From Nemertoderma westbladi (lineage: Eukaryota > Animalia > Xenacoelomorpha), in contig JAUCBJ010008877.1 in assembly GCA_032718475.1 (NCBI GenBank), forward strand, positions 1-64,000: a stretch of DNA of 64,000 nt. Reading direction: 5' to 3'. Every line of letters starts with the position of its first letter. Position 1 is the first letter of the stretch. Below are positions 5,333-62,265 of the stretch, piece by piece. The notes beneath the pieces are model-generated. The model worked only from the letters and a program-made list of their open reading frames with translations, was not told the DNA's origin and searched no databases. The position numbers were made by a program, and so were the translations under genes.

Positions 5333-5719
5333 TATTCTACATGCCAGGTCAGTACCATTTAATATTAGTTAATACTAGTTATCAATAAAAAAAACTTGGT
5401 TGCGCTTAAAACCCTAAGGCTTTTACAGTTTTGAATCTAATCACATGAAAGTTTTTTTTATATGATATATCAAAGATGGGGCAACATAACTATCAGGCGA
5501 AATTTTGTGAAAATAATTCTGCACCGCAGAATTATTTACGTTACGGTAATACGCAAATTATTTTTTTCGGAATTCAGAAACGTAACGTAATTTCGAATTT
5601 ATTCCGAAATGTAATAGCGTAACGTAAAAAGTTCAGTTTTTCAAACGTAACGTAACGTAACGTACAGTATAACATCCTTGATCAGTTGTTTAAAACAAGT
5701 GTGACGGTACTGTATGAAG

Positions 5720-13385: not shown

Positions 13386-13603
13386 AAAAATGCAGAGGAA
13401 ATGTAATAATTACATGTTCAACATGTCTATTTTCTAGTAGAGCAAAAAAAAATTCAAAAAATGCGATTGTTAAATTGTTAAAATATTAATCCAAAATTTT
13501 ATACAAATTGTCTATTTTCTAGTAGAGCAAAAAAAAATTCAAAAAATGCTATTGTTAAAATATTAATCCAAAATTTTATACAAATTTAGGTGGTCGTTCA
13601 CAT

Positions 13604-30745: not shown

Positions 30746-30859
30746 AGCAGAGTCAGAGAGGAGTTTAATCGTCCAAGTTTTGGACTGAGGGGGGTGGGAT
30801 TGAGGGCGAGACGCCCTTCCCACACATAAAATAAAAATAAAATAAATAAAAATTAGAGT

Positions 30860-34060: not shown

Positions 34061-37000
34061 TGTTAGACTAATACAAATACTAATATCAACCGCAGGATGG
34101 CGCATGTAAATATATCTACTAATCTCACTTACAGTTTCATTTATATACCACTAGAGAGAAGATAATAAAACAGTTTGTCAGAACCTTTACACCTTTCCCT
34201 CCAACATTGGCGCTGCGAGTACAGATTCACATTCACATTTTACATATATTAATTACATAATTTAATTTCAAATTACAATTTGAAATCTTACAAATCAAAT
34301 TAACTTTGATAATTAATTGTGATTGTGTAACTCAAACTCAAATTACGGTACAAACTTACGAGAATGGCAAACGCACCTGCAATGGGAACTAAATTTACAA
34401 ACATTTGCAAGGCATTTAATCCAGATTCAGATAGATGGGACACTTATCTATTAATGTTCAATACAATTCTACGTACAACTACATGGAGAAGAGCCGATGG
34501 AAATTTAATGGAACCGAACGAAATATTACAAGCTGAAACAAACATGTTCATCGCTAATTGTGGTTTACAAACTTTAGATTTACTATCTGATTTGATGTTT
34601 CCAGCAGACATTTCTAAAGAACCATTCGAAAATTTAGAAAAATCACTTACAAAATATTTCAGAAAAGGTAAATCAAAAGAAGTCGAAAGAAAACGATTCA
34701 TACAAGCGACTCAGACATCGGGAGAAAACATCACGGATTTCGCCAAACGTCTAAGAAATATTTCAAGAAATTGCGAATTTCAAGAAGCATTAGATGACCG
34801 TTTACGAGAACAACTAATTGCTGGGGTACGAGACGAACATGTTGCAGCAGAACTAATACACGCGAAAGACATTTCATTTTCAGAAGCTTTGATTACAGCA
34901 AAAAATTATGAAGAGGCATATAAAGTGGCACAATCAGGTAGGAAACCAGAATTTGACACGTTTCGCGTCACTACACAAAGTTCAGGATTTCCGAAAGATA
35001 AATATCGCCATACAAAGGTAAGATCTCCTTCATATAAACCTTACAAATCTACAGAAAATTACAATCAATATTCTATAACATGTTATCGGTGTGGGAAACA
35101 AGGACACAAATCAAACCATTGTCGACTAAATCCTAACATTGTTTGCTCATTTTGAAAAATAAAAGGTCATGTAGAAAAAGCGTGCATTAAAAAACAAAAG
35201 ACTAAAAGTGTTCGCTTTCAGGACAAAAAACCTACATCCCATGCTGTAGACATTGAGAATGTTATGGGAGATAACAATGAAGGAAACAACGATAACATAT
35301 ATTTGCAAAGTACGGAAATAAGCGATCCACATACCATAGATAAAGTACAGCTTCCAAAAGTGGATTCGATCGTGTTACAAACACGAATTAATGAAATATC
35401 TCTTACAATGGAATTTGATCCAGGGGCAAAACACAGTGTCATATCATACGAAATATACAAAAACAAATTCAGCAATGAACAATTACATGAATGTACATCA
35501 AAATTACGAGGATTTTGCAAAGGGATTGCGGAAATACGAGGCGTAATTTATGTTACAGTGAAAATAGAGAATGCGCCAGAATTGATCGCAATGCCACTTA
35601 TTGTTGCTGAAAATTGTGAACACATACCACTATTCGGTTTGTATTGGATCAAACGAATGATATTAATGGGTTGCAGCATAGATGACATGATAGAACAGGA
35701 TATTACTAAGGTACACCAAGTGATAAATTCTGAGGGTTACGACAAACGACTACAAAGTTTACTGGAAGAATATCGGGACGTTCTTACAGGCATTGGCTGT
35801 TACAAAGGGCAAGAAACCTGCATTCGTTTAAAAGATGAGAATACGAAACCAAAATTTTTACAGGCCAGAACGGTACCGCAGGCATTCAAGGAAAAGGTCA
35901 TTGCTCAGTTAAAGCACGACATAGCAGAGCATAGATTAGTTCCACCTGAGTTAAACGAAAATATAGAATGGGCAACACCCTTGGTGGTAACTCCAAAGCC
36001 AGACGGTTCAGTGAGAATATGTGGGGATTACAAGAGTACAGTTAATCCTTACCTCATAGAAGACCAATTTCCACTCATAACCACTGAAGAGTTATCTATG
36101 AAATTCCAAGGCAGCAAAATATTTTCAAAATTGGATATGGCAGCCGCATATAATCAGCTTCCCATAGATAAAAACAGTCAAACGTTATTAACATTAGCTA
36201 CACCATTGGGTTTATTGAAACCAACCAGACTACCCTTTGGGATCACCCCTGCTGCTTCGAAATGTTTAAAGGTTGTTAACCGGGTATTACATGAAACTAA
36301 ATCAGTAACATATGTTGATGAAATTCTGATAGGATCACCGAATATACAGGAACATTTCGAGACATTACAGTCTGTTTTTGAGGCATGCAAACAAGCAGGG
36401 ATAACCTTAGGCCTCAAGAAATGTCAATTCCTGCAAACAGAAATAGAATTCTGTGGCCACATAATAAATGACAAGGGATTTACGGCTGATCCAAGAAAAG
36501 TGACAGCAATACAAGAGTTACAAATACCTTCCACGAAAAAGGAATTACAAAGTGTGATGGGTACAATGAATTATTTACGAAAATACATCCCCAAATATGC
36601 TGAATTATCCCATCCATTGTATAAATTACTACAAGGCAATACATTTACATGGAATGAGAAAGCTACAAAAAGTTACAACTTACTTAAAACAGCTATTGCG
36701 CAAGCAACACTTTTACACCATTACAATCCAGATAGGATACCATTAATTATAACAGATGCTTCGGAATATACAGTATCAGCAATACTTGGACAAAAAGACG
36801 AGGAGGGTGAATTTAAACCGATTGCATTCGCATCTGAGAACTTAGATAAAAGACAACAAGCTTATTCTCAGTTAGATAGAGAAGGATTAGCAATAATATT
36901 TGGTGTACGAAAATTCAAACACTATCTGCTCGGAAGAAAATTCAAATTAATTACAGATAATGCTCCTTTGAAACGGATATTATCACCTTCGAAATCATTA

Positions 37001-38754
37001 CCAGTTACAACGATATCACGATTACAACATTGGGCAGTTGAGTTAGCCGCTTACGATTACACAGTTGAGACAGTAAGATCAAACGAGAACATCACAGATT
37101 CGTTATCACGTCTTACACCACCATCAGTTTCAACATATTACGACGACGATATTGATTTGCAGAGTATAGATTTACAACGTAAACAACTTATTGACGACTT
37201 TCCTATAAGTAAACAAAATATCAGAGAAGCTACACACACTGATAGTACTTTAGGACATCTAAAGAATGCTATTGAATGTGGAGAAAGTATTCATGGAATC
37301 AAAGGAACACCTCAATTACGATTTTACAAATCGATTGAAAATGAATTAGCAGTTAATGAAGGTATAATAACACATGGAACGCGTATTATTATTCCGGAAA
37401 TACTACGTACGAAGATTCTAAATGAACTTCATTCAGCTCATATTGGTGAAAAACGCATGATACATCAAGCATCAGAAGTTTGTTGGTGGCCAGGGATGGC
37501 AGAAGATATCAAACTTTACATACAGTCATGCATTGCTTGTCAGCAATTTGCCAATTCGCCATCAAAGACGTACACGCCATTACAAAAGTCAACTGAACCT
37601 TTCCAAAGAGTCCACATAGACTTAGCAGAATTGGAAGGATGTCAGCTATTAGGATTAGTTGATGTTTATTCAGGTTGGAAAGACATACGATTAATTAAAA
37701 CTACAACATCCACTGCAGTAATTTCCCAATTGAAGAATATTCTATCTTTCATTGGAGTACCGGAAATTATATTTACGGATAATGGACCTCAATTCGTTTC
37801 AAATGAGATTGAAACATTCTTTACCAACAATGGAATTACACATTGGACGTCAGCACCATATTCACCATCATCAAATGGAGCAGCTGAACGAATGGTACAA
37901 ACGATGAAACAATCGCTCAAGAAACAAGGAAATGATAAACCAATGTACGATCGCATAAGTGACTTTCTATTACAAGATAGAAATTCCATTTACTCACCTA
38001 CAGGTTTTACACCAAATGCGACAATATTTAAAGCGCAGATTAAAAACCGATTACAACGATTAATCAACTATCCGGTCAATCCTCACACAGAAACAAAAGG
38101 AAAATTCGACACGGGCGAAGCTGTGTGGGTAAAGAATTACGCAAAGCAAGGAAGAGGTCAGGTTGTAGAACATTGGTTACCGGGGAAAATTATAGCTCAC
38201 CAAGGATCACGAGTGTACAAAGTTCGCATTGGAGATATCGAGTTAAAAAGGAACGTAAATCAGCTACGAAGAAGAAACACCCCGTGGATACATCAAGAAG
38301 AAAGAAGAACACGTCTACAACTTCCTCCATCTACAAATAGACAACCAAGATTAAGTCGATTACAAGAAGGAATGACACATCAACGTCGAGAACGAGAAAG
38401 GGAAGAAATAATACAACCCGTATCGCAGAACACAGATCCTCCACCACGAACTAATACGGTTACAAAAACTTTAAGAAGTGGAAAACAATACACTATACAT
38501 ATTTAGATATATATATTATTAAATAATTACGCGAGATATATTTGCATGAGTGTGTTATACAAACTTAGCGTTACGTTAGTGCAAGTATCATTCATTGCGA
38601 GGGGGTATTGTTAGACTAATACAAATACTAATATCAACCGCAGGATGGCGCATGTAAATATATCTACTAATCTCACTTACAGTTTCATTTATATACCAAT
38701 GGAGAGAAGATAATAAAACAGTTTGTCAGAACCTTTACACCTTTCCATCCAACA
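34061..38754 (+). mobile_element. Full-length Ty3/Gypsy LTR retrotransposon with 146-bp LTRs
   Basis: LTRs 34061-34206 and 38609-38754 (TG...CA, 3 mismatches); 5-bp TSD AAGTT; PBS TGGCGCTGCGAG at 34208 (tRNA-Ser-like); PPT GAGGGGG at 38599-38605. Confidence 0.97.
34364..38506 (+). pseudogene. Gypsy gag-pol single frame with one internal TGA (35153-35155)
   Basis: ORFs 34364 and 35264 share a frame. Knuckles CYRCGKQGHKSNHC and CSF*KIKGHVEKAC; protease FDPGA; RT VRICGDYK, LPFGI, YVDE; RNase H TDAS; integrase HSAH..CIAC, HIDL, TDNG, AERMV. Confidence 0.93.
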
Positions 38755-38904
38755 AAGTTTTTAAGGCAAGTTCTCGAGGGTGGGAACACAGTAGGAATAC
38801 CATAGTTGGGGTATCCCAGTAACGTGGTTACCGGGATATTCAGCCATGACCGGGATAATTTTGATAAAATGGTAAGACAGTTTAAGGGATTGCAAATAAC
38901 TACA

Positions 38905-41550
38905 CACAATACCAAACAGGATAATTTAAAATCGAAGATTTATTGTAAAATAAATCCCCATCCTATTGTAAAATTGTTTTATACTATAGAACATTTATTA
39001 GTGAAACTTATTTATCCTATTGTAAAATTTTGGGGTTTTCTCTTTCATCTGATACAGAATTTAATGGATATTTCAAATACTGTAATACAGTAAAACGGCT
39101 TGGCGAGATCTTTTTTAAATCTTGAGTTATCGCTGTCTTTCCGTTTACCAGTTTGTCCGTCAAAATTTAGAAAACAGGCAGACAAACCGTCACACAGACA
39201 TACTGTATTGGATACCACTAAGCACTAAACATTAAAGCCTCCGGAAATGAAATCACCGACCCCAAAAATCCACATATTGATAATTTTAATGAGTTGGTAT
39301 GATGCCATAGTGTCAAACATTACTGACCGATTAACAGACTACAGACTGTCAGGTTTGAGCGCGAAGGTTCAAACTTTAAAACAAATTAGAAAAAAAATCT
39401 CAGAATTACATTTTGCGTTTTTAATTTTTTGAAGATCTTGAAAGATTTTCCAGCACATTTTTGAAAAAATATTTTGCTCAAATATTTTTTACAACATAGA
39501 TATTGACCTACAATGCGAAGTTAGAGCTGTTTAAAAAAAAATCTCATTAGGAGAACCCCCCCCCACCCCACCCCCCCCTCCCCCCACCTAAAATCAGCAT
39601 CCCTGAAAACGTTAATAACCTGAAAATCAATGTATTTATTTGATCAGTTACAAATATATTTCAGTACAAATACAACAATTTTGTTACCGGTAACTTTACG
39701 ATTTATGAACAGAATTGTAATGGTTGTTAAGGGAGTCTTGCCGGCTGAATTATGTATGACAGTAACCGCACTTATTTGATATCCTTATGTATAGAGTCGA
39801 CATGTTGATTTAGTACGTGTTTGTAACGGAATTCTTTGACAATAAACGCACTTATGTTTGATATCTTTATGTATAGAGTCGACATGTCGGTTTAGTACGT
39901 CTTTTCTAGCAAATGATTTTCCACAATCAAAACAGTTGTACTTGATATCTTTATGAAAGCAGTTCACATGGGTGTTTAGACTTCTTTGCTGACTGAATTC
40001 TTTATTACAATAACCGCACTTATGTTTGATATCTTTATGTATAGAGTCGATATGTAGATTTAGGTAGTGTTTGTAACTGAATTCTTTATTACAATAACCG
40101 CACTTATATTTGATATCTTTATGTATAGATTCGACATGTCGGTTTAGTACGTCTTTTCTAGCAAATGATTTTCCACAATGAAAACAGTTGTACTTGATAT
40201 CTTTATGAAAGTAGTTTACATGGGTGTTTAGACCCACAATACCAAACAGGATAATTTAAAATCGAAGATTTATTGTAAAATAAATCCCCATCCTATTGTA
40301 AAATTGTTTTATACTATAGAACATTTATTAGTGAAACTTATTTATCCTATTGTAAAATTTTCATATTTTGGGGTTTTCTCTTTCATCTGATACAGAATTT
40401 AATGGATATTTCAAATACTGTAATACAGTAAAACGGCTTGGCGAGATCTTTTTTAAATCTTGAGTTATCGCTGTCTTTCCGTTTACCAGTTTGTCCGTCA
40501 AAATTTAGAAAACAGGCAGACAAACCGTCACACAGACATACTGTATTGGATACCACTAAGCACTAAACATTAAAGCCTCCGGAAATGAAATCACCGACCC
40601 CAAAAATCAACATATTGATAATTTTAATGAGTTGGTATGATGCCATAGTGTCAAACATTACTAACCGATTAACAGACTACAGACTGTCAGGTTTGAGCGC
40701 GAAGGTTCAAACTTTAAAACAAATTAGAAAAAAATCTCAGAATTAAATTTTGCGTTTTTAATTTTTTGAAGATCTTGAAAGATTTTCCAGCACATTTTTG
40801 AAAAAATATTTTGCTCAAATATTTTTTACAACATAGATATTGACCTACAAAGCGAAGTTTAAAAAAAAATATCATTAGGAGAACCCACCCCACCCCCCCC
40901 CCCCCCCCCAAAATCAGCATCCCTGAAAACGTTAATAACCTGAAAATCAATGTATTTATTTGATCAGTTACAAATATATTTCAGTACAAATACAACAATT
41001 TTGTTACCGGTAACTTTACGATTTATGAACATAATTGTAATGGTTGTTTAGGCAGTCTTGCCGGCTGAATTATGTATGACAGTAACCGCACTTATTTGAT
41101 ATCCTTATGTATAGAGTCGACATGTTGATTTAGTACGTGTTTGTAACGGAATTCTTTATTACAATAACCGCACTTATGTTTGATATCTTTATGTATAGAG
41201 TCGACATGTCGGTTTAGTACGTGTTTGTAACTGAATTCTTTATTACAATAACCGCACTTATATTTAATATCTTGATGTATAGAGTCGACATGTTGTTTTA
41301 GTTCGGCTTTTGTAGCAAATGATTTTCCACAATCAGAACAGTTGTACTTGATATCTTTATGAAAGTAGTTGACATGGGTGTTTAGATTCCCTTGCTGACT
41401 GAATTCTTTATTACAATAACCGCACTTATGTTTGATATTTTTATGTATAGAGTCGACATGTAGTTTTAGTCCGGCTTTTGAAACAAATGATTTTCCACAA
41501 TCGGAGCAGCTATACTTGATGATACCTTTGTGGGCAAAGATAATGTGGGT
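38905..41550. repeat. ~1.33-kb tandem duplication of the 3' end and downstream flank of the zinc-finger gene
   Basis: cacaataccaaacaggataatttaaaatcg starts at 38905 and 40235; the flanks are near-identical up to the ZF array. Confidence 0.88.
39785..40234 (-). pseudogene. 5'-truncated paralog of the C2H2 zinc-finger gene (4 intact fingers plus a frameshifted one)
   Basis: CFHC/CGYC/CGYC/CFDC fingers with HxxxxH and KDIK linkers; no N-terminus; last finger frameshifted. Confidence 0.85.
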
Positions 41551-42348
41551 GTTTAGATCTTCTAGGGGGTTTAATTCTTTATTACAATAATCGCATTTAT
41601 GTTTTATGTCTTTGTGAACGGATTCGATATGTTGATTTAGTTCGGCTGTTCTAGCAAATGATTTTCCACAATGAAAACAGTTGTACTTGATATCTTTATG
41701 TATAGAGTCGACATGTCGTTTTAGTTCGAGATTGTAACTGAATTCTTTATGACAGTAACCGCACTTATGTTTGATATCTTTATGGGTAGCGTCAACATGC
41801 TTCTTTACATAATTTTTGCGTTTAAACAGTTTCTCACAATAATCGCATTTATACTTATTCTCTACGTCTTTATGAACGGATTCTATATGTCTCTCTAAAA
41901 TTCCTTTGTTATTAAATAATTCATTGCAATGCAAACAGGAACTGGTGTCTGAAGAAGATACCAACTTCCCAACAGTTTCATTAGAACTACCGGGCTCTGT
42001 TGTTGCACAACTGATTGTCGCTTCTGTACCTTCAGTTTCAATAGGCCTACCATAAGAACACTCCGCGCTGTCGTTTTCCCGTTTTTCAACAATAAAAGAA
42101 TCTTCAGATGGTTCATAAGAAATATCTTCGTCATCTAGTACAGGGACAACATCTACTCTACCGAACAAATTGTTGTGATCTTCGATGGTAGATGATCCAT
42201 ATACGCAGTTCTCTTCTTTAACATCAAGAGAATAGGTGATACAGTCTGTTGGTTCTCTCTTTATGATTATAAAGTCTGTTTGTTCTTTCTTTATAACTAT
42301 ACCGGCACCAGATAATTTCTCTTTCAATAAATTAGTATGTTTATCCAT
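41092..42348 (-). CDS. Intronless C2H2 zinc-finger protein (~418 aa, 10 fingers)
   Basis: ATG at 42348 (MDKH). Acidic N-terminus with IKKE/IKRE/VKEE motifs; 10 C-X2-C-X12-H-X4-H fingers, mostly at a 29-aa period with KDIK(H/Y)K linkers. Confidence 0.85.
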   Translation of the reverse strand: MDKHTNLLKEKLSGAGIVIKKEQTDFIIIKREPTDCITYSLDVKEENCVYGSSTIEDHNNLFGRVDVVPVLDDEDISYEPSEDSFIVEKRENDSAECSYGRPIETEGTEATISCATTEPGSSNETVGKLVSSSDTSSCLHCNELFNNKGILERHIESVHKDVENKYKCDYCEKLFKRKNYVKKHVDATHKDIKHKCGYCHKEFSYNLELKRHVDSIHKDIKYNCFHCGKSFARTAELNQHIESVHKDIKHKCDYCNKELNPLEDLNTHIIFAHKGIIKYSCSDCGKSFVSKAGLKLHVDSIHKNIKHKCGYCNKEFSQQGNLNTHVNYFHKDIKYNCSDCGKSFATKAELKQHVDSIHQDIKYKCGYCNKEFSYKHVLNRHVDSIHKDIKHKCGYCNKEFRYKHVLNQHVDSIHKDIK

Positions 42349-44811
42349 TATCAAATCTTCAATAAATATTATTCAATAAATTAAATACAGGTGGCAGTAG
42401 TTTTAGGTATGTCAAGCTCTTCACTAATATAAATTTCATGCGATGTAAATATAATAAATAGATGATATAAGGGCGTTCAAAAGTTGCATGTCGTGTAACG
42501 GAAAAGAGCAGGTTATACAGTACCGCTTTCAAACAACGTCGCATTGGATCCTAGTACAGGATCCAAGTCACTGATTCACTACTGTAGGAAAACTTTCAAT
42601 ACGTCAATATGCACTATCCGCCTAGAGTAGTAGTTTAAATTAGGGTTGAAACTGACAACCAAACGTAGTATTTGGGAAATTCGCAGGACCGAGCGATGAT
42701 GCAAAAACATACAACTTTAGAATGCCAACATCTCGGCAATTTCTTGATAGCATTCAAATGTTTTCACAGAGTTTAGAAATATTACTCACCCACATTAAAA
42801 TAGAAGCAACACCCGGTTTCATTTTTATAAGAATTTTTTTCTACCAGCATGTGACAGGGAAGAGGATACATTGAAACAGAGTCTGGGCTCCAGGGCCAAA
42901 TTAGCTAAAGGTAATTAAAAGAGAAACATTATAATTATAAATATGTACCTATCTTAACATTTTTACATCATCCAGCCGATCTCCTTACTCCAGGTATTGC
43001 TTGGTATATTTGCATTTTTCTATACGACAGTTCCTATGTAGCAAACTTCGCCTGCGTTTGAACTTAAGTAATTAACAGTAATTAATTACCGGTACCTAAT
43101 ATTTAAACAAAAACTCAAGTTCGCGTAGCTAATTATAAAACTGTAACCTGTAAAGCCCGTCGCTACAGACATTGTCAATACTGCTAACTTTGAAGGTCGT
43201 TTTCACTTGGTTGCTATGGTATTTTCAAAAAACTAAATATGCCATTAAATTCTTCAAATCAAAAATAGTAATCTTCCATAAATTTTAACTCATCATATCT
43301 ACAGATAATCTATAGGAGCTGTTGCTATGGCAGTTTCCCCTGTTGCTATGTTTAAGACTCTCTAAAAAACCAGTTCATCCATTTGGTGAAGTCAACCCGA
43401 TTTGTATATAATGTCCCATATCAGTATTAAACATCAATATGGGCTAGCTGAGTCGTATAAAAACACTTACGGGCCATAGGCTGGAGCCTGTATTACATAT
43501 AGAAACACCTAGATTTATAAACATTGAGGCAGAAAACAATAGTTCGACATATTTTTTCCGACGAAAATACGAAATTAAACATTGTAATATTTCCGTTGCT
43601 ATGTTAACCCAAGCGTGATGTTTAAATTTCAAAATAGATAACAATTCAACCAGTGAGTGTGTAGGAGTGTGGAATAATCCAACCGGTGTGGTATCGTTAG
43701 ACCGGAGCCAGATTTTTGCCGGAGCCGGAACCGGACCGGGTAAATTCCAAAAGTACCGGAGCCGGAACCGGATTCGGGTAAGTAATATTAAAGAAATATA
43801 TATTGAGGCCTGGTATGACTGTATGACCTACAGGCAGACAGGTACCAGTACCACTGTCATAATAGACTAACATACTAGTTATAATACTGTAATAGGACCT
43901 GGCATGTTGCAGTTAGTCCACTACACAGCTACATTTATTTAGCTTATTTAGTGAGCCAACTTCTGCACTTTCCTGCTTTCTGACTTTGTTTTTACTCATA
44001 AACCAGTACATTAGTCTGGTAGTTTTATTAGATATTAAACCTAACTGCCTAACAACAGAACAACGATGCAATAGACTGATAGAAGAATGGTTGATAGCAT
44101 CAGCCCAGTCTGCCAGTACTGCAGTAGATCTGTAGATGTAGAGGTATACTAATACCATGAATACTACTGTACTAGGCTAGTGACAGGCAGACAGGCTACA
44201 GGGCTAGACAGAGTTAGTAGGTAGTACAGTATGCAGTACTGTAGGTACTAGTGCAGTAGTGTACTGACTGCCTGTCTTTCAGTCTTTGTACTGTCTGACT
44301 GTTGTAGCCTCAGCCTGGCACCTGGCACCTGGTAGGCCAGTCAGCCAGTACTGAGTACAGCAGTAGGCAGTGTAACTGTACTATGCTGCCCCGGCCGACC
44401 AAATTATTAAGCGCGCCGCAGATTGAAATAATTAAATTTTGAAGAGCGCTGCTCAGCCACGCCAATTGCCAATGCAATTTCAACTTTGAAGGAGTGTAAC
44501 CAACCAGTCTGCAAATTTCAGTCAGTCAGTAGTACTGCTGTAGCTGCAGAACTGTCAGACTGTACAGCAGTACTGCAGTAACCATAACCATGCAACAGAA
44601 AAAAAGAAAGGCGAACGACTGAGCGAAGTGAGCCGAAATTTATAATCAGCTAATACTGTAATAATAATGTAATGTAATTTTTAAGGCAATTCCGTAATTG
44701 TTAAACCACTAAATCGGCGCCGGTTTTATTTTTGGGAGCGCCATGCGCCAAAACCGGCGCGCTTTACGATTTACTGGTATTGGACTGCTACTGCGGTAGG
44801 CTGGCAGGCAT

Positions 44812-46016
44812 TGTAAAAGCTTTTACTGAATTGTCCGGTTATTTTTCCGTATTTTTCCCGTAAAGTACTCTGTAGTTGATTTACCAGGCATAAAAAGGCC
44901 GTGTCCTTGCTGTACTGGTGTTTTAGCGGACATAAGAGCTATTTCTTCTGTATTTGTACTTTAGAGGACATAATCCGTAATTCCGTGACGTAAAAGCTCT
45001 ATACTCTTGAAAACAGTGTCGCTACCATGACGACAGCTAGCAGCTGATATTGCCACGTCGACGTTTCTTTGTTTCTCTGTTCTCTCGTTGTTCAGGTTGA
45101 CCAATCAGAGCGTTTGTTGTCTTTGTGTTGGAGGTATATACAGAAACTCAGTAGTTCGCAGTGTTATGTTTTTGCCCAGAGCCTAAGAACCGGCTTTGGC
45201 ACCTCCGTTTTTCAGTTTTTAGTCTTACACTAGTAGGTTTAATTATAAAGGGCATATATCCTTTAACTCATGGAATCACTGCTAACTGATCATACATACT
45301 GACTGCTGAAACATTGCAAACTCATAACAATCAGTGTTCAGTTGTTGTTTTATACTGCTATTTACTGTCAGTTCTTCATAATATGGTTGATGAATTATTA
45401 TATTTGGAATAACGATAAATAACCCCGAAACCCAATATTCTTGATATACTGAAGGTAAGAGAGAAAGGTTACCAGTAACGATTGTGACTTATGTTAAAGT
45501 GGTTTGAATTGAATCTAATGTTATTTGATAGACCCTACATGAGTCAGTCTGTGTTCCTTTTATATGTGACTAAAATCAGTGAAGATCGGCAGATTAGTGT
45601 GCAGTATTGTGCAGCATTGTGTATGAGTGAGTCTGTTAAAGAAGCATTCCTAAAGAATGCGCCATATATGTGAATTATAATTAAGCCATATCGTTGTGAG
45701 TAGTTTAAGCCATAACTCTGTTTATATAGATAAAGCGCCACGTCCTAAAGGAACTGTTAATATTCCCGAAGATAAATAATATTGTCAGAGATTATATAAT
45801 ACTGTCAGTCGAATAATACATTAGGCTTACATAGCAACAAAATTAAACCGTCGAACCCAATCTCCCGGGAATATCCAGCGGGTGAATGGTCGCGCACGGA
45901 TTGGTTTCGACTAGTGTAGTGAATCAAATACTTGTCATAGGCTAAAAAGCGATTTAATATTTAGAAGACATCTTAATTTGGCGGGTTAAACTGCCAAAGG
46001 TCTAAAAGCGCGAACA
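44812..46016 (+). repeat. 5' LTR (1205 bp)
   Basis: TGTAAAAGC...GCGAACA; CCAAT at 45101, TATATA near 45135, splice-donor-like AAG|GTAAGA at 45455. By eye it differs from the 3' LTR only by a 2-bp and a 1-bp indel. Confidence 0.97.
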
Positions 46017-46315
46017 TTAAAGGATATAGCTTCTTTGTTGCAGTAAGCAATAAAGTTGAAAGTACCGGTCAACCGGTAAACCTGAACCGGTACATTCTGT
46101 AGGTCAGTAGGCCTAACTGTTCTAACCGGTACTTCCGTATAAGTACACTAGTATTATTCGATTTGATTGTTGTATACCGGTAGGCTGTTTAGGGGATTAG
46201 GGATTGATCACCCCTTATTCCTTTATATGGTTTACTTATTTCTGTCAAGTTTTATTTATTTGTAGGCCAGTATTGAACAGAAGGCGTGTAAGCCTGATCA
46301 GATTGTACAGACGAT

Positions 46316-46880
46316 TTGTAGGCTGAGCTGTTGTCTGATTGCTGTTAAGTCCGAACGGATTGCAGTGTGTGTGTAGATCACCTGTCCGATTAAGTACGAT
46401 TAGGCAGTAGGGGCAGTGAACACTGTAAGGTAAACCCCCAACTAAAGAATAAGTCGCACTACTGGGTTAGAGCGCATACTCCCTAATCATTTCGGAGTCT
46501 GTATGTCCTGTAGTTTATTTAGGCTTGAGAGTAGTCTGCCATCGTTTAGTCTGTACTTTGTTTGTGTAAGTCTGTACGGGTAGCGTATAATTTTATTTAG
46601 ATAATTTGTAGGCTGGATAGTTGTCTGGCTGTTATTAGGTCTGAACGGATTGCCGCGTGTGTAGATCATCTGTCCGATTAAGTACGGTTAGGCAGTAGGG
46701 GCAGCGAACGCTGTAAGGTAAACCCCCAACTAAAGAATAAGTCGCACTACTGGGTTAGAGCGCATACTCCCTAATCATTTCGGAGTCTGCATATACCGTA
46801 GTTTGTTTAGGCTTGATAGTAGTCTGTCAGTGTTCGGTCTGTATTTTGTTTGAGTAGTTTGTACGCGTAGCGTAATATTT
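46316..46880 (+). repeat. ~288-bp tandem duplication in the 5' leader
   Basis: tttgtaggctg... at 46316 and 46606; core ggcagtagggg...cggagtctg near-identical in both copies. Confidence 0.85.
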
Positions 46881-48210
46881 ATTATTCAGAGTTTATGCGA
46901 TTATTCGCAACATTCATTCCCCAAGTTTGTTCCTACAGTAATTGTGTTTGTTATACATACCGCTATAGTTAAATTAACCCCGGTACTACACGGGCTGCTC
47001 GGCGTAGGTAAAGACTGGTGATTTTGTGCATCGGTCACTCCAGCAGATGCCGTGGTTCTTTTAGCTGTTCAAGTATATTTAACTACTGATTATCTGTTGT
47101 ACAAGTACTTGTACCTAATTTAGGGTTTAGTGTACAGTGCTTTCCGAAGTAATTATTGTAGACATTATATTTGTGTTGTAAAGTGGTTGATAGGCACATT
47201 CGATTAGCTCTATTAACTTCTAGGTAGGAACACTCCGTGATACATAACGTAGAACCTATAGCGATACGGCTATAGGTCGTCAGGCGGTGGTATTTTCCTA
47301 TCTAGACAACGCAGTGTATTTACTACTACTTATTATTTCAAATACCGTAGTACCCTGTCCGTTGTAATAACCGGTTATCTAACCCTTTGTTAGGCTGGTT
47401 TGTAAACTTCTTGTAAAATTACCCTAAAAATTCGTATTTTGTGTTTTTTTTTTTGTAAATTTTTGTGTTTATTTAGAGATTGTAATCTCAACCCGAATTG
47501 TACGTAATTTGTAGTATTAAGTAACTTAGGTAAATTAGTATTATTTGTTTTAGTGTCCTGTACGTAACACTTCACTGAAAGCGCACCGCTTTGTGTAGTG
47601 ATTACTCCCCAGAAATAATAACATTTATTTCAAACATAGACAAAACCCATTAAAACGGGTATAAATACATTATAAATTAAATCTAACGATTTATAAATAG
47701 TAGGCCTACCATATAACAATTAGGTCTCCATATCAGTTGGACTACTGCTCAAATAACGGTAATAAAGTAAGTAAAGTAACAAAGTAACCCTAAAGTAACA
47801 GAAATTCAATTATTTGAAATAATTGATATACCGGTATTTACGACAGGCCTATTATCTTTATTTCTATAAATCTAGGCTGAAATTATACCGGTACTTGTAA
47901 TTAATTCTATTTCAGAATTATATATCCTACAAACTGTAAGCTGTATACCGGTATTCCAGATAGGCCTATTATATATTTATATATATTTGTGCTAAAATTA
48001 TACCGGTATTCTGTGATAAATCTAGTCTGTAATAATACTTATATAGTTATATATACTATAAGTATACCGGTATTCTAATATATTATATATATATCACGCT
48101 ACACTGAGTAGCAGTAACGGTAATTAATTACTAGACTAGCAATTAATACTGAGTTACTAGACTTACTCAGACTGTAATACAGCAGTAGACATTCAACGGT
48201 ATACATAGTC

Positions 48211-48909
48211 ATGTCTGATACTAAGCAGAACCTGTCAGACAGTTTATTAGATGTAACCATCTGCGACTCAGATAGAGACGTACAACCATCTGGTCGTAAA
48301 TCCAGTTCACCTCCCACTGTGAGGAAGGTCATCCCTCCAGTAGTAATAACAGAACCTAGGCTGGTCCAACATCGTAGGTCTATCATAGGCACTCGAGCTC
48401 AGGTCAAGCGGGACCAAAAGGCAGCGGAACAGCAACAACCCGCTAGTCAAGAATTTATTCCTCAGCGGCCCAGCAGCTCCAGTAGTGAGGATACTGTAGA
48501 GCTGACACCCGAGAGCGGAGCAGAGAGGACGGATGCGGTTTATACGGATCCCCTTCTCATCCTTCCTGCAGCCGTGCTCGCTGGGTTATTGATCGCGGTG
48601 GAAGACAGTCAACGGTCAACTAGAGATAGCTACGCGGGATACACGAGTGAAGAACTGAAGTCTATTGTCGAGTCGCAATGGAACTTCCCCGGACCCGGAC
48701 TCCCGTTTGATTTATCGGAAGCTGCCTGGGAAGACATACACCGGATGGGAGTAGCCAAGGAAACCATCGATCCAGCTGTGTGGAAGAGGTCCGCAGCGGG
48801 ATACGCACAGGGATTCTTCAGCTCTATGGAGCGAATAGAAAAGCAACTTTTTCAACAACCTCAAGGACCTCAAGAGCAGGGATCGCTGCTTTATCAAGTA
48901 AGAGAATGA
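48211..48909 (+). CDS. 232-aa ORF, in frame with gag-pol and separated from it by a single TGA
   Basis: Same frame as the 48976 ORF; no other stop between 48909 and 48976; S/P/Q-rich with no recognised domain. Confidence 0.7.
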   Translation: MSDTKQNLSDSLLDVTICDSDRDVQPSGRKSSSPPTVRKVIPPVVITEPRLVQHRRSIIGTRAQVKRDQKAAEQQQPASQEFIPQRPSSSSSEDTVELTPESGAERTDAVYTDPLLILPAAVLAGLLIAVEDSQRSTRDSYAGYTSEELKSIVESQWNFPGPGLPFDLSEAAWEDIHRMGVAKETIDPAVWKRSAAGYAQGFFSSMERIEKQLFQQPQGPQEQGSLLYQVRE

Positions 48910-48975
48910 GTTCTGCGGATTAGGCTAATCTTATCCGCCTTTGAGGAGGCTTCTAAAAGAAAACAAGACACGTCG

Positions 48976-51900
48976 TTGCAAGTTGCCGTAAAGACTTGGT
49001 TTCAACGGGTGAGTCGCCAGGTTCAAGGAGCAGCTCAGTGGAAAGCTCAGTTGGAGGAGCGCTCAACCCATGGAGAATCGACGGAAGCTACTTTTTCCCA
49101 AGTGGAAAGTGAAGCGACGGCAGATAAACCGCATAAGAAGGATGCCATTGATATCTATCTGTCAGACTATCAGCGTTTTTTGGGAGATGAAGAGTTGAGG
49201 AGAAGGTTAGAGGGACTTAGCCCTAATAGCGAAGGAGCCAAACTAGTGTTAGATGCGATTGATGTGGATAGGTTAGCGGCGAACCAAGCTAAATTCGATG
49301 AACAACTCCGCATCGCTAGAGAACAAGAAGAACAAGTAAAGAAAAAACGTATAGAAGATAGAAAGACAACGGCAGTGGCAGCAGCAGTGGCAGCGGCAGA
49401 AGCCGAAAGAAAAGCGGCACTGGCAATGGCAGAGGCAGCGGCAGAAACCGAAAGAAAAGCGGCACTGGCAATGGCAGAGGCAGCGGCAGAAACCGAAAGA
49501 AAAGCGGCAGAAACCGAAAGAAAAGCGGCACTGGCAATAGCAGAGGCAGCGGCAGAAACCGAAAGAAAAGCGGCACTGGCAATAGCAGAGGCAGTGGTAG
49601 AAGCCGAACGGAGAGCATCTGAAGAGACAACCCAACTAGAGTTGGAAATTCTTCAAGAGAAGCAAGACAACTTCAATAAACAGTTAACAGCGAGCAATAT
49701 GCAAATGATGAGTCGATCTACTCCCAAGAGACAGGGGTATACATCATCTGAGGAAGGCGATACCACCGACACTGAAGGCGGAAGAAATCGATCTCGCCTA
49801 AGTAGACGTAAAAGAACATTCCACCGGCAGAAATTGCCTGATTTGCCTCCAGCTGTTAGAAGGCAACTAAATAACACCAAAGTAGGTAGTACAGAACCCA
49901 CAGACCAAATAATTACAATAGAGAGACTCCCTACTATAGTAGATGAGCCTGAAATAATTAGGCCTGTTCTTGAAATCACCCCTTCGGTGATAGACATACC
50001 TGTGCTCCCTGAGACTACCTCTAAATTCCCTTTGCATAGCACTAAGCTACCTGTGCCCCGTAGAACTGCCCCGGATACAGTTCAGGTCCTGGACCCCGAG
50101 CGAATTATTCATAATTTGTCGCCCGTTGTCCCTCGTCCGCCCGCTACGACGTTGGCGGATCCTGTTTCGGCGGTTGATTGGGTAGACGAGAGACGGCGGG
50201 GGATGGATATTCTCCTCGGAGAGATGAAGGAGAACCGGAGACTCTCCTCCCAACAGGTCCGAGAGTTGGAAGGGACTGTCCAACATTTAAAGGGAACAGT
50301 GAGGGAAAGCAAGTTAGAGTTGCAAGAAGTGCAGCAAAATATCGCGCTAGAGCGCGATAAATTAGTAAATTTACAAAAGGGTATACCACCACCCCCTGTA
50401 ACAATGTGTCAACCCGTTAGGTCTGAAGTATCTCATGCGCAAGGTGTGGAGCCTATACGCATTTATACTGCTAGCGAAGTAGAAACTCCTATAGTGAACC
50501 CTATTAAGGGTAATTATAGACCTGTTTGTAATGATATTCCCTATGGAACTGATCATAATCCGAGGAATTTATATACCGATACCTCGATATTAAATAGCAC
50601 GATGGCCCAAGAAAGTTTTACGCGTCAAATGGCTAGAACCGAAGCCCGGCAAGCGGTAAAGGTTGGAGAGATCGTCAAGTTCAATGGAGATGAGATGAAG
50701 TGGTTACCTTTTAATGAATATTACAAAGATAACATACAGAACTCTGTACTATCTAATGGAGAAAAACTTAGATACCTCATCGAGTGCTTGGAAGGATCTC
50801 CCAAGTTAATGGCGTTAAAGTTTATTGGACATCCAGACGGATTAAGACAAGTTTGGGATACACTAAACATCAGGTATGGTAATAGGAATAATATCGCTGG
50901 GTACTTGTATGCCAAGTTAGTAGCGCCCCGAAAGTTTATTAGTAGCGGAATTATCGAGTTTTCCGATGAGATCCAGGAGATCTGCAGACAATTAGATTGG
51001 CTAGGTAAGTCTCATGAGTATCAGAACACTATGGTTATTAGAGCAGTGGCTTCTACTTTACCTAAAGGTGGAGTAGGTACACGCTGGGATAAGAAAGTGT
51101 TATATATGATGGAACAACAACGGCGAGACCCTACCATGGCTGATCTCATGTCATTCCTGGATGGAGAAGTGAAATTACAGCTCCTGAAACTGTCTAGGGA
51201 GAAAACACCGGAAAACAAGGTAAGTGAAAAACCCGTCTCTAGAAGAAAAATAACCCCAGTATGTTATACCGATGACGGCGAAAGCCAGACTTCACAAGGA
51301 GAAGATAGCGGGAAGGACACGGATAGATCTTATTACGTGAATAAAATGCCTAAAGATCAGGTAAGTAAATTCAAGTCTCGAACAAATGACAGGAGAGAAC
51401 AAGTAAGAAAAACTCCTCCCACGTCTCCCAAGAGAATTCAGGTGAGAAAGCCCGAAGAAAAGGCAAGTGTACACAATGTGACTCAGAATAAGGTAAGTAA
51501 CATCAAACCAAAATGTGCGCTGTGTGACGGGACCCACTATTTGAATAGGTGTGATGAATTTCTAAAGAAATCATTAACGGAGAGACGCGAAGTCATGTGG
51601 GATAAGCGGTTATGTTATAATTGCCTCAGACAAGGACACCAACGGCGAACCTGTTTCTCTGACATAAGGTGTGCTAAGTGTGGTGCGAAACATCATATCT
51701 TGTTGCACGCTGAATTCGATCGAAATAGTCCGAATCAGGTAAGTGATTCCGAGCTACATGTCCAATTCAGTGATGTGAACGACACTGATCAATCTGAGAT
51801 GGAAGGATTCTATACAGACGAGTTCTCTGACGAAAACGAATCCTGTTACATGATAAATACCGTAGTGTATCGAGCACTCACATATGAGAAAGATACAGAG

Positions 51901-54900
51901 AACGACTTTACTCTAACTACTTCTGAACGACAACCACCTTGGAAAGAGACATCCTCCAATGTAGGGATCCGAGAGTTTCCTGTGGTGCAGGTAAGGGTTC
52001 ACGGACCTAAGAGGAGTTATGTAGTGAACGCCCTCCTGGACTCCGGCAGCACAGGAACATTCATCGATAAAGAGTTAGCCGAAGATATATTTGCTGGACA
52101 ACCCAAGTTCCAAACTAAGCTCAACATGTCAGGCATTATGCAAGTTTGGAAATCCACAATAACAGCTGATTATTATGTCGGAGCGTTGTCCACCCCCCAG
52201 GACGAACTAGGAGAACACAGCATAAGGTCAGTGAAAATGGTGGCTATAAAGAACTTCGCTACTACTCAAGCAGACCTTTATAATTGGGACGAGGATGAGA
52301 GCATCCAACATCTTAACATACCTCGATTTCAGACTGATTATCCTGGAGTGCAAATACTCATCGGCCAAAACGCGCATGAGGCGCTGGAGACGTTAGAGAA
52401 ACGGCCTGCTCAACCGCAGCCCCTGCAGACCTATGCGGTAAGAACTAGAGTAGGTTGGTACTTTACTGGCCCTTCCCGTAGAACACTCAGAGAAAGACTA
52501 CCGCCAGAGAGAGTCTACAAGGTGAGTGAATGGGAAGATGATGCTAGTGAGGGAGACGATTCAACTGAGGGAATTCCATACTCCTCAGATAACGACGATG
52601 TTCACCAGCTTTTTGATGAGGAGAATACCATCGATCTCCTTAAGGAAAACGAGGCTTGGCAAAATCAAGTTAACTTATGTCAACTTCTCTATCCATCTGA
52701 ACGAGAAGCTTATAACGACGAGTTAAATGACGTCATTGAGCGTCATAATGCCAAGATTAGGGATGAACATGCTGTACGATTCTTTACGCAAGAGGCGGTA
52801 GAGCCCAATTCCTACGATAAAGCCTTGTCGGTGGAAGAGGAAAGGGCCAAGCAGATCCAAGAGACAACTACATGTTTCCTCAAAGATCAAGGTAGGTATG
52901 AAGTCGGTTTACCTTTCCGCAAGAAAGAACCGAAGTTCATCAATAACAGACCTTTGGCGGAAAAAAGAATCGCGCAACTCCATCGACGCCTTACGGCTAA
53001 TTCTTCAGCGAAAGCCATGTATCAAACACAGCTAGAAAAATTTATTAATAAGGGATACGCGGAGAGAGTACCGGAAGAAACACCTGTGACTGAAAGAACG
53101 TATTATTTAACTCACCATTACGTTCCTAAACCCGGTAAACCCAATGAAGTGAGAGTAGTGTTTGATGGCTCCGCTCTTTACATGGGTCAATCCCTTAACT
53201 CTGAATTGTTACCCGGACCCAACTTACTTCAATCTTTGTTGGGAATTCTTTTAAGATTGAGACAATATTCGATTGCTTTCGCCTCCGATATAGAAGGTAT
53301 GTTCTTGCAAGTCAAAGTGTTGGATAGGGATCGAGATAGCTTACGATTTCTATGGTGGCCCGAAGGAGACCTCAACCAGAAACCGGTGGAGTACTGGATG
53401 ACCATCCAGGCCTTTGGGATAATCTCAAGCCCTTCCAACGCCTGTTCGGTAGTGCGTACTACTGCAGAGGACAACCGAGAGGCATTCTCTAAGGAAGTGA
53501 TCGACAACATCAAGAAAGATATATACATGGACGACAATCTGAAGTCCCTCCCATCAGTTGAGGAAGCCATTGAGGTCGCTAAGGGAACGGTAGAGTGCTT
53601 AAAAAGAGGTGGATTTCGATTAACCAAATTCACCAGCAACTCCCGTGAGTTTCTGGAGTCGATCCCTGCGGAAGATCGCGGAGCGAAAGATCTTGATTTG
53701 ATCAAAGATGATCTGCCAGAAACCAAGACACTCGGCTTGAAATGGGACACAGAGAGAGATATCCTGTTTTTCCAACTAAAACAGCGAGATAATCCTGTTC
53801 GAACCAAACGGATTTGCTTAAGTATACTGAGCACTTATTTCGATCCATTGGGATTTATTAGCCCAGTTATATTGATTGCTCGAAGTTTGGTACAACAAAT
53901 GTGGCTTGAAAACCACTCATGGGACGATCCACTTAAGGGGGAATTACTGAAGCAGTGGATGAAATGGGAAGATTCTCTACCGGCTATCGAGGAGTTTATA
54001 ATTTCCCGTTCATATTTTGGTCATGTTCTCCCTACGTATTCCTATCAACTCCATGTGTTTGGAGACGCCAGCGATATGGGAATCGGTATAGTAGCCTACC
54101 TAAGAGTGGAAACTCCGGATGGAATCAAAGTCGCCTTGGTTACTTCTAAGGCATTAATCAACAACAAGTTGAAAGTTCCTCGAGCGGAGTTAAAGGCGGC
54201 TCTATACGCTACAGGCATCGGCTGGAATGTAACCGAACAGATTGACTATCCATTAGAGAAAACTGTCTATTGGACCGACGCTTTACTCGTGTTAGAGTAT
54301 ATAACCAATGAAGTCTGTCAGTTCAGCGTCTTCGTTACCAACAGAGTAGCCATCATACTTAGTCGCACGACGATGGACCAATGGAGACATTGCCCCGGAA
54401 CGATTAATCCAGCAGACATCGCGTCCCGAGGAGCGACTCCAAAGGAATTGGTAAATACTCCTGAATGGTTAGGTGGACCCGACTTTCTCTACCGAGAAGA
54501 AGAAGAATGGCCACCCCATCTCACAACAGCAGAGATCAGACAAGCCAAGGGAGCGGAGAAAGTTAAACCCAAAACTCGAGCGAGTAAATCGAAGTTGTTT
54601 AAACCTGCGGTTGATCTATCTGTATTATTTACTTCCGGAGATGATGCTTTGGATCAGAAACCCACCGCCACGACCCCAGAAGTCTTGGAAATCCGTGACA
54701 AGGATTGGAAATCTGGAATACCAGATATCTCGCAAGGACTCTCACCTCTCTTGCAGAGAGCGATACGTCACTACAGTTCCTGGAATCGGCTCTGTAAAGC
54801 TGTTACCTATTTGAAACGATGTTTTCATCATCGTTACTCCGGAACAAAGACCAATAGTGATGATGCTCCATCAACATCTGCACGAGTCCATGTTATTAAA

Positions 54901-56409: not shown

Positions 56410-57900
56410 TATCGTTCGGAGTGGGCGTGTGACTCTATTATTTTATATTATTTTATTATTTTTACATTTATGTATGTATTACTATGTAATTTTATTATAA
56501 TCGTTTTATTTAATTTAGTAGAATATTATTTAGCGATTATTTTGTAGAATAGTGCAATATATTCGTGTTTATTACGTACGTAATTACTTATATTATATTT
56601 AATGAGACGGCGAAGAAATAATTATTTTCTCTTTCCTTACTGTCCGTGTTATATTATAAATACGTAACTACAGTAAGATGAAATGTCCGTACTTATTAAA
56701 GTACAATAAAGCCACTACTATATTTTAGTATTATTGGTAGGCAGAGTATTAGGAATGCAAAGTTCAGATCCTCGTGTCTCGGCTAAACCAAGCTCTGGGT
56801 AGACCTTGGAAACGACTTGCCTCTTCACACTGACATTGCTTCGTGCGATATTGCTCTCATACCGTTAACGTCCCCAGACAAGTTCTGGAATAAATCGGTG
56901 CCCATCTCAAATATTAATTAGTTAATATTTACAAATCAAATAAGTCAAAATCTGTAAAATTCAGATCCTTCAACAATTCTAGTCAATTAAGATATCGTAG
57001 CATTTACCGATATTCTTAAAGAGACAATTTTCTTAGAATTAAGGATCTTGTGTCCCTAGACATGTTCTAGAATCCAAATATGCCCATTTAATTATCAAAT
57101 AATAAAATTTCAGGGAATAAATTTAAATTCATGTCTTTTAATGAATTTAATAAATTGCTATTTTACGCGATTTATAACATTCCCAAAAATTCCATTAATT
57201 AATAGATCAAGGGAGTGGAGATTTATATTATTATGCGTATGCGTGTACGAAAGTCTCCCAAATATAGTTAATAGCCGATAAAATTCGTAAAGTCATGTAT
57301 AAACAGGACATTGACTATTAAAGAATCCCTATTAAATAACATCCCAGATCTGTATGCATTGGAATTACTCTAATTCTACCGCTAGCTTTGCATAATGTCA
57401 CCATAGCAACAACCACGCTAGAATTAGAATTGAGTTAAACAAACAATAGAAAGCTTGTCCCATTGAATAACATAGGGAATAAATAGCGCACTACTAGTAT
57501 CCAAGGATACATAATAATACAGTGACATTCTGGAAAGCATTGACTAACGGACAAATGGCCCGAATGTGTGTAGTTGTGACCAGTTGTGTGGTATTTGTGA
57601 GTTTATAGGTGAATGTTACTGCTAAAGTGTGTTTACAGTAGCTAGTCGCAATCGTAAAATAACCTAACTCTCCAAGGAATACCTGAAGTACATCTAAGCC
57701 TTTGGGACGGACAGTGGAGTGACTTGTGTCGGTTATCGTTGTAGTTGTACGGCTACGTCGTTGGCGAAAGTACAGCTACAGCGGTACATTGGCGCTGAGA
57801 ATCTCTTACTGTCCGGGGGCAAGGGAGAAATAGGCAGCGACGCCCGCTCGCCTAACGATATATAAACTCATTATAATATTGGTGAACTTGTATAGCAGAT

Positions 57901-58299
57901 ATGACTGAATTAATAGAAGATGATCTTGGTATCAGGGAGAGATATACTCTACCTTTACAAGCGTTTGTCGATAGCTTGATACGCGGCGACGCTGATCCAA
58001 CTATTACGGAGGACGATGGTCGTTATATCGAACCGCCAATGTCCCAGGAGCAACTTACGCGTGAATTGGATTATAGGAAGTTCACTGCTCGCTACACGCA
58101 TCGTAATGGTACGTATATGGACTTCTTGACCACTGGTCATCCTATTGATTTACACGACACCGACGACGTAGACACCGAAAGGGAAATGGTTTTGTTTAAA
58201 TATCATGCCCAGCGGAGTCGAAACGATAAATCGAGAATGGAACACGAGAACTCTATTCGAAATCAGCTCGAAAGAAAGAACGTGGAAGAAGGCTTGTAA
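57901..58299 (+). CDS. 132-aa acidic accessory ORF of unknown function inside the BEL/Pao element
   Basis: ATG-initiated, protein-like composition in an otherwise AT-rich region; TATATAAA at ~57859 and a TAGCAG acceptor-like site just upstream. Confidence 0.55.
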   Translation: MTELIEDDLGIRERYTLPLQAFVDSLIRGDADPTITEDDGRYIEPPMSQEQLTRELDYRKFTARYTHRNGTYMDFLTTGHPIDLHDTDDVDTEREMVLFKYHAQRSRNDKSRMEHENSIRNQLERKNVEEGL

Positions 58300-59131
58300 A
58301 AACAAATATAGGCGAACCACTGGAGAAGAGACATATGTTAATGTCCAGGGTCCATAATGTGAATAGTTTTCCCCGGGGCACGGGTGCTCGCGGGCGGTCT
58401 CCTTCGGGAGGCTGTAAATTTCTCTTCCTTCATCGTTTTCCTGTAATTGTTGTGATCAGTGTCACAATTAAAAGACAAGAATGAATGATGACGTGATGGA
58501 AAACTTGTCCATTGTGGTGTCTTATGGATACTACCCTATATCTTCCTCCTCTTTACTCCCTTCATCGATCGACCAATCATAGTGGTATCGTGGTATGGAT
58601 CATACCTCATCCTAATAAATCTCCTCACCTTCTCTTCCCAACGCGCTCGGAGCTTCGGGAAACGAATACTAAACCTCCCAGCCCTTACTGTTCATCTGGA
58701 TGCTAATATTGGTGTCCGCACCTCCTGTCCATGTCATATTCTGTTGATATTTATGATATCAACTTCCACCCTCTCGTTCTTGATTAGGTAATCAAACACT
58801 TCCTAATTTCCTCAAGTCCACAACCGTGAAACAAGGACTGAAAGGACAAGCGGATAGTTTGTGAACAACTGGTACCATTATGTGTCATAAATCTGGTTGT
58901 TCACCTCCCTTAATGATTGGGGATATAAATCTTATGTAGAACAACTGAGGCAAACATATCTTTGAGCTGATGTTTACCTCATCACACTGGGGATAAATTC
59001 GGTTGGGGATAGTACTCGAATGTTACAATCCTCCTACTGAGATCTTATTTCTGAATATTTCAGAATGCGAAATAGTTTTTCCTCTGCTCTACCATCGCTG
59101 TCGGAGAACATATTAGGCATACAATGGGAAC

Positions 59132-60907: not shown

Positions 60908-60985
60908 CTGTTTAGAGTATCTTTATGTTTTAGAAACTGTGATTTTTATATTTTATAGACTGAAAATCCCATTTTCTGGGAGCGG

Positions 60986-62187: not shown

Positions 62188-62265
62188 GGCATACCGCGGT
62201 AAAACGAACTTAGATCCTGCAAGGCCTGACTTTGATGAACTTAGATCTTTCCGAACTTAGGTCCT

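Follow-up and report, generated by a model that had tools for sequence, protein, structure and literature searches.

A BEL/Pao retrotransposon of Nemertoderma westbladi with a primer-binding site complementary to its own LTR: a candidate for self-priming

The element and its place in BEL/Pao

We analysed a 64,000-nucleotide stretch of Nemertoderma westbladi DNA (assembly GCA_032718475.1, contig JAUCBJ010008877.1, positions 1 to 64,000; hereafter the window), which contains a complete BEL/Pao long terminal repeat (LTR) retrotransposon of 17.4 kb at positions 44812-62187. The sequence at its primer-binding site (PBS) position complements a segment of the element's own LTR, and probably points to priming of reverse transcription by the element's own RNA. 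Features are on the + strand unless indicated otherwise.

The 5' LTR (44812-46016; 1205 nt, TG...CA) and the 3' LTR (60986-62187; 1202 nt) match at 99.75%. They are three indel bases apart and differ by no substitution, indicating that the insertion is recent. Identical 5-bp target-site duplications flank the element (44807-44811 and 62188-62192). In the contigs of run X4, loose ends at 44812 and 46017 mark the same LTR edges at other insertions. Both LTR halves and the leader were covered by contigs of four public runs, and run X3 contigs showed two joints leaving the stretch at 46020. The 2.2-kb leader contains two repeats of about 290 nt, 87% alike, at 46314-46890. It is followed by a first open reading frame (ORF1, 48178-48909, ATG at 48211), for which no Pfam match was found. 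A single in-frame TGA (48907-48909), either a readthrough signal or a lesion, separates ORF1 from the Gag-Pol frame. This frame (48910-56409) encodes 2499 amino acids with matches to DUF1759, Peptidase_A17 (3e-35 in Pfam), Integrase_H2C2 and DUF5641. Protease, YMDD and integrase motifs were located in the order typical of BEL/Pao. An additional 3' ORF of 596 amino acids (59117-60907), carrying motifs that resemble Cys/His knuckles and ending in a basic tail, precedes the short polypurine tract (60978-60985). It gave no Pfam match, homolog or usable Atlas match, an absence that does not prove novelty. A 132-amino-acid ORF lies upstream of it (57901-58299, +).

Two features characteristic of BEL/Pao (Belpaoviridae) were found: the order Gag, protease, reverse transcriptase (RT), RNase H and integrase with BEL/Pao-type domains, and paired LTRs in the 0.2-1.2 kb range with a polypurine tract and a target duplication. 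A third was absent. The profile of the International Committee on Taxonomy of Viruses (ICTV) describes an 18-nt PBS for tRNA-Arg or tRNA-Gly and genomes of 4.2-10 kb (PMC8742986), whereas the PBS position here (46017-46028) has no TGG. We read the missing tRNA-type PBS as a gap in the family description, since 10 of 12 relatives depart from it likewise (see below) and the family is defined by its polyprotein. Named homologs came from fish, echinoderms, a nemertean, a lancelet, a brachiopod, a cnidarian and an arachnid, at about 28-42% identity, and those listed carry Peptidase_A17. No close protein relative was found, the best identity being about 42-44%, and viral contigs searched with the protein, the alignment and a DNA pattern gave no match.

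Complementarity between the PBS position and the LTR

An earlier note on this DNA, made from its letters, had placed the end of the 5' LTR at CA 46016 with no TGG behind it; the LTR pair, the target duplication and the X4 edges all agree with this. It had also reported that 46017-46028 is the exact reverse complement of 45255-45266 inside the LTR, and we confirmed this. These 12 nucleotides are hereafter called the 12-mer, and are the candidate 3' segment of a self-primer. The complement of 46017-46028 occurs in the window at 45255 and, as the second copy in the 3' LTR, at 61426-61437, and nowhere else. Extension of the helix to 14 bp over one bulge was likewise verified, the bulged base being A45254. 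The bulged extension can be carried further, with 45237-45253 facing 46029-46048 in a predicted duplex of -23.6 kcal/mol. The energy of this extended duplex was rejected as evidence, since -23.9 kcal/mol is obtained for an unrelated window of the LTR, at 44875.

The note's rough chance estimate of 1e-3 or less proved sound. From base composition, the expectation of a 12-nt match is 3.6e-4, and when the LTR was shuffled 20,000 times by dinucleotides, 12 nt at offsets 0-3 was reached twice. When 14,883 internal positions were taken as mock LTR edges, 12 nt was reached only at the true edge; eight positions gave 11 nt, one of which is the true site shifted by one base. When the position is not fixed, complements of 11-13 nt do occur, including a 13-nt one inside the AT-rich leader (47808). 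Thus, the significance of the match rests on its fixed position. The criterion used in the literature for self-priming is an LTR complement of at least 10 bp, 0-5 nt past the 5' LTR; here the complement is 12 bp at offset 0.

Relatives were fetched with a pol-region alignment including 28 homologs. This yielded 79 metagenome loci (the best 80 of 593 confirmed) and 23 loci from genome records. The 80 loci of at least 5 kb were screened for repeats, and in 12 elements, about 30-45% identical to ours in protein, the repeat edges defined both LTR ends. A further 21 loci were scanned with the LTR end left free; one had no recognisable LTR start, leaving 20 scored. Same-family duplicates (L006, L013, L030, L035, L100), loci with decayed or unclear LTR ends (L032, L043, L047, L058, L062, L067) and loci without LTR or PBS were left out by eye. 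The junction search was not fully blind: GT-AG junctions were sought by expectation, and the splice patterns were widened after the sequences had been inspected. The 23 loci from genome records (L080-L102) lie in bacterial-genome or metagenome-assembled-genome records, encode BEL/Pao polyproteins and in several cases have LTRs and target duplications; they are likely to be animal host DNA within those bacterial assemblies.

Among the 12 relatives with repeat-fixed ends, nine showed a perfect complement of 10-15 nt located 0-4 bases past the LTR. It was contiguous in two of them (L012, L080), and in the other seven (L002, L004, L022, L033, L081, L082, L018/L009) it appeared only across a GT-AG junction in the LTR. 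As L081 and L082 are close kin, the nine positives represent eight lineages. One more relative, L028, had 11 nt across a junction with one G-U pair, and the remaining two (L094, L098) were of tRNA type, with TGG at or near the LTR end and a complement of 4 nt or less. When the PBS was swapped between elements, none of 154 pairs reached 10 nt (0 of 130 in an earlier round). In the free-end scan, at least 11 nt was found at 15 of the 20 loci. Under perfect-match rules, with no G-U allowed, four loci gave 9 nt (L037, L038, L065, L071), and L045 had no match of 9 nt. Control scans with reverse or complement sequences never reached 11 nt in 40 trials, one giving 10. The best match of L084 was internal, leaving 14 free-end loci, 10 spliced and 4 contiguous; a further 15-nt spliced match was seen in L034. 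Altogether, the match spans a GT-AG junction in 17 of 23 positive relatives.

The two sides of the helix also change together. Six sister pairs, compared without gaps and anchored at the 3' end, showed one to four primer differences each, 15 in total, and every one was matched in the PBS. The survey of TGG-less BEL/Pao elements that the note had proposed therefore turned out in its favour, different letters recurring with covariation of both sides. We infer that the pairing partner is the element's own transcript, processed in 17 of the 23 relatives. The note's broader claim of tRNA-independent priming stands as far as this co-change in distant relatives goes; the exact primer end, the start site and a hairpin switch were not established.

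Two further observations were made among the relatives. In L009 (56-95, taken with the L018 LTR ending at 7027), the PBS starts with TGG but is complementary over 14 nt to the splice junction of the same element, AATAAA included. Thus, TGG alone is no proof of tRNA priming. In the sister families L068 and L010 (RT branches of about 0.1), an 11-nt match lies across a 266-nt LTR intron in one and is contiguous in the other, which suggests that an intron was lost or gained while the pairing persisted.

Our element departs from these relatives in position. Its PBS offset is 0, as in only L033 among 22 relatives; the other 21 have offsets of 1-5 bases, so that a primer end exactly at the LTR edge, as the note had it, is not established, and the first two pairs of the 12-mer helix may be incidental.

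Start sites, folding and rival explanations

Two promoter candidates were found in the LTR. The upstream one (45101-45141) combines CCAAT at 45101 and a TATA-like motif at 45134, with a start near 45160 judged from spacing. The second, TATAAAGG at 45244-45251, may be a TATA box, a variant poly(A) signal or the 5' arm of a local hairpin. The note had taken the TATA at 45135 as the best; in our scan TATAAAGG fitted better, and it predicts a start near 45273, downstream of the 12-mer. The LTR contains no AATAAA, its strongest candidate for a poly(A) signal being ATTAAA at 45842-45847.

Part of the 12-mer would be hidden by the local hairpin (45246-45265, 7 bp). The note's hairpin held in that it is predicted to fold at -5.0 kcal/mol; its role as a switch remains a folding prediction. 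In unspliced RNA, a second LTR segment (45635-45683) is a predicted competitor for pairing with the 12-mer region. As a result, no primer helix is predicted in unspliced RNAs starting at 45160-45236. In folding, the helix was restored by a start at 45249 or by removing an intron from 45455, although folding of 900 nt is unreliable.

A consensus splice donor lies inside the LTR (45455-45460, exon end 45454), and a pyrimidine tract with AG just past the PBS (46030-46043) is a candidate acceptor. Removal of introns from 45455 gave mean pair probabilities of 0.78-0.95 (acceptors 45729, 45914 and 45964), versus 0.0 with a short or no intron; the donor was three bases off in one of these runs and two acceptors one base off in the other. 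An intron from 45455 that would join primer to PBS was set aside, since progeny LTRs would lose it, yet contigs of four runs cover the stretch. Neither did we find a splice-built complement in this element: 26 donor-acceptor pairs gave no spliced match of at least 6 nt, and its 12-mer is contiguous. Possibly the donor serves messenger RNAs, which might be spliced to 46043 and thereby lose the PBS.

A diverged relative in run X5 aligns with 45216-45379 and keeps 45216-45272. Among the listed 40 of 335 substitution entries and 12 of 104 indel entries, 20 of its 21 substitutions fall in 45273-45334 and none in the 12-mer. This comparison depends on one contig with ten gap letters unplaced, and a conserved seed was needed for the contig to be placed at all. 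Summed depth is low near 45273, an observation to which we gave no weight. The conserved block comprises the two predicted hairpins and is also the TATA-to-start interval, so that it cuts both ways.

Several observations weigh against priming by the 5' part of the element's own RNA. A start near 45273 would leave the 12-mer outside the RNA 5' end, and the X5 block ends at about this position, fitting a promoter equally well. The 12-bp helix is AU-rich (-11.6 kcal/mol), and an unrelated window equals the extended duplex. For unspliced RNA from 45160, folding predicts no primer helix, and imposing one costs 5.6 kcal/mol. The primer end lies 750 nt from the LTR end, versus 44-252 nt in 22 relatives. 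In 20 of these the paired run ends in AC or AT, and in two in ACT, whereas the equivalent C is unpaired here. Where a TATA-like motif was seen upstream of the primer end (7 of 22 relatives), it lay 43-251 nt away; here the distance is 23 or 132 nt. Finally, the element forms a long branch, and its common descent with the positive relatives is not shown by the trees. In the RT-RNase H tree it was unplaced at the base, nearest to L022 by path, and in a longer tree it joined the tRNA-type L098, with a long-branch warning. The positive relatives fell into several separate supported groups. The trees contained no named references for the BEL/Pao clades (BEL, Pao, Tas, Suzu, Sinbad/Sailor, Dan, Flow).

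The explanation that best survives besides 5' priming is self-priming from the 3' LTR copy (61426-61437), which we consider unlikely. If TATAAAGG is a TATA box, the RNA lacks the 12-mer at its 5' end, which leaves the 3' copy as the sole possible primer; as a poly(A) signal, TATAAAGG would likewise leave the 12-mer only or mainly near the RNA 3' end, to be cut in cis or on a second packaged RNA. This explanation gains from the better match of TATAAAGG than of the 45134 motif to the TATA consensus, from its location 23 nt upstream of the primer end, from the X5 block ending at 45272 and from the lack of AATAAA in the LTR. However, such a cut would part U3 from R on the template and so would presumably require a second RNA. 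Moreover, 12 of 22 relatives have a poly(A) hexamer downstream of the primer end, which therefore is not their poly(A) site, and TATAAAGG can also be explained as a hairpin arm mimicking the PBS.

Less probable still is priming by a host RNA without a CCA end (a tRNA half, a trailer or a small RNA), in which case the LTR match would act as a regulatory helix, either masking the PBS or bringing the genome ends together. PMC6317226 describes priming by tRNA halves in lineages of Ty1/copia, and the local hairpin and the competing segment suggest alternative pairings. The PBS letters of the relatives vary by family, however, and always track the own LTR or splice junction, so that no fixed, conserved host RNA can fit them all. 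In addition, the LTR and PBS compared with Rfam (E up to 5) matched no family, the sole hit being at chance level and outside the LTR; neither a spliced-leader nor a tRNA match was obtained in that search, and there is no tRNA gene in the window.

A chance match in an AT-rich 1.2-kb LTR, chosen out of many elements, or a decayed PBS is very improbable: the 12-mer is AT-rich, complements of 11-13 nt occur at unfixed positions and the trees do not put the element with the positive relatives, but the chance is about 1e-4 at a fixed site, the relatives give a high prior, and LTRs without substitutions imply recent synthesis of this copy from a functional primer site.

The other elements of the window were also considered. 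A Gypsy element at 34061-38754, with LTRs of about 146 nt (about 34061-34206 and 38609-38754), has a TGG-type PBS and served as a control; its longest LTR complement was 5 nt. Two BEL/Pao pol fragments (8212-13437 and 26815-30746) are interrupted and about 25-35% identical to the main element. They showed neither paired LTRs nor a clear self-primer signature, 19-nt entries among their matches being edge artefacts. The note's statement that neighbouring LTR elements carry tRNA-type sites is thus right for the Gypsy element, whereas the two BEL fragments gave no LTR pair on which to judge it. The window also contains a C2H2 zinc-finger array on the - strand (38902-41557 and 41092-42372) with a 1.3-kb tandem duplication, a 1.2-kb insert (4124-5333) with inverted ends of 432 nt (99.5%), and a 1.6-kb repeat, composed of 21- and 49-nt units, that is present twice (1925-3545 and 62266-63827; copies 92% alike). 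Its second copy lies 80 nt downstream of the BEL/Pao element.

Proposed priming mechanism and known systems

Altogether, the sequence comparisons favour self-priming: it is quite likely that the element is primed from one or the other LTR copy, and, with somewhat less confidence, it probably primes minus-strand DNA with the 5' part of its own RNA. The transcript would begin ahead of the 12-mer, at about 45160 or 45214. Inside the particle, 45255-45266 would anneal from 46017 onward, perhaps with bulged pairs back to 45237. By analogy with Tf1, the element's RNase H would cleave the RNA at 45266 or no more than two bases from it, and the 3' end so released could prime DNA synthesis over 750 nt of LTR, from 46016 as far as the cleavage site. 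The DNA would then jump to the 3' LTR copy, restoring the part spent as primer. Such a primer would be about 50-105 nt long, compared with 11 for Tf1. The local hairpin and the 45635-45683 competitor might keep the helix shut until Gag acts as a chaperone. The pairing segment is contiguous here, and many relatives would form it only after removal of an LTR intron.

A wider generalisation has, in our view, an even chance of being correct. Non-insect BEL/Pao elements would be largely self-primed, mostly with spliceosome-joined LTR exons as the primer. The present element would be a far-diverged member whose long, capped primer is unspliced and stays closed by a hairpin until the RNA is packaged; its LTR donor would splice the PBS out of messenger RNAs.

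If this element and its relatives are self-primed, the ICTV description of tRNA priming is wrong for a large part of Belpaoviridae, PBS-based annotation misses or misreads such elements, and self-primed elements escape control by tRNA fragments at the PBS. The wider generalisation would also add a third independent origin of self-priming in LTR elements and the first splicing-licensed reverse transcription. The splice-junction form in the relatives would couple reverse transcription to host RNA processing, and it poses the puzzle of how the intron survives in progeny LTRs. The RNA-DNA junction is predicted exactly to within a few bases.

In the full-text literature we found no report of BEL/Pao self-priming or of splice-built primers, most subscription papers, Repbase reports and supplements being outside the scope. 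PBS, tRNA or priming are not mentioned in the main text of PMC554778, PMC3118150 and PMC6238403, and the available passages of PMC3601003 and PMC8220671 treat PBS and priming only in general terms. The ICTV profile describes Belpaoviridae replication as host-tRNA-primed and poorly understood (PMC8742986).

Compared with Belpaoviridae (genus Semotivirus), the element agrees with the profile in domain order, Pfam families, 1.2-kb TG...CA LTRs, 5-bp duplication and polypurine tract, and differs from it by the absence of a tRNA-type PBS, its 17.4-kb length and the extra orphan 3' ORF (PMC8742986). With the half-tRNA-primed Ty1/copia elements Osser, Bryco and Bianca, as presented in PMC6317226, it shares a PBS without TGG; theirs tracks a fixed host tRNA, whereas the BEL/Pao PBS tracks the own LTR. 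For the plant TAR copia lineage (Houba, Osr-1) and for Tcn1, self-priming is predicted in excerpts of PMC6317226 from the same complement of at least 10 bp, 0-5 nt from the LTR, that is found here. TAR elements are, however, plant Ty1/copia elements, and those excerpts describe no splice-built primer for them.

The closest functional parallel is with Tf1 and Tf2 of Schizosaccharomyces pombe, Tj1, Tf1/sushi elements and Tcn1, which have no tRNA site and a PBS that complements their own LTR-derived RNA. In Tf1, a passage of PMC7175516 states, RNase H cuts between bases 11 and 12 and frees the primer; the same self-priming is proposed for Tj1 of S. japonicus in PMC4600332. Whereas Tf1 uses its first 11 bases, the segment used here would be internal, 50-105 nt from the cap and 750 nt from the PBS. 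Furthermore, many BEL/Pao relatives would need splicing to form the primer, unlike the Tf1-type Ty3/gypsy chromoviruses. The element has BEL/Pao domains and no Ty3/gypsy chromovirus polyprotein, which places it outside Tf1/sushi. Thus, it likely works like Tf1 yet belongs to BEL/Pao.
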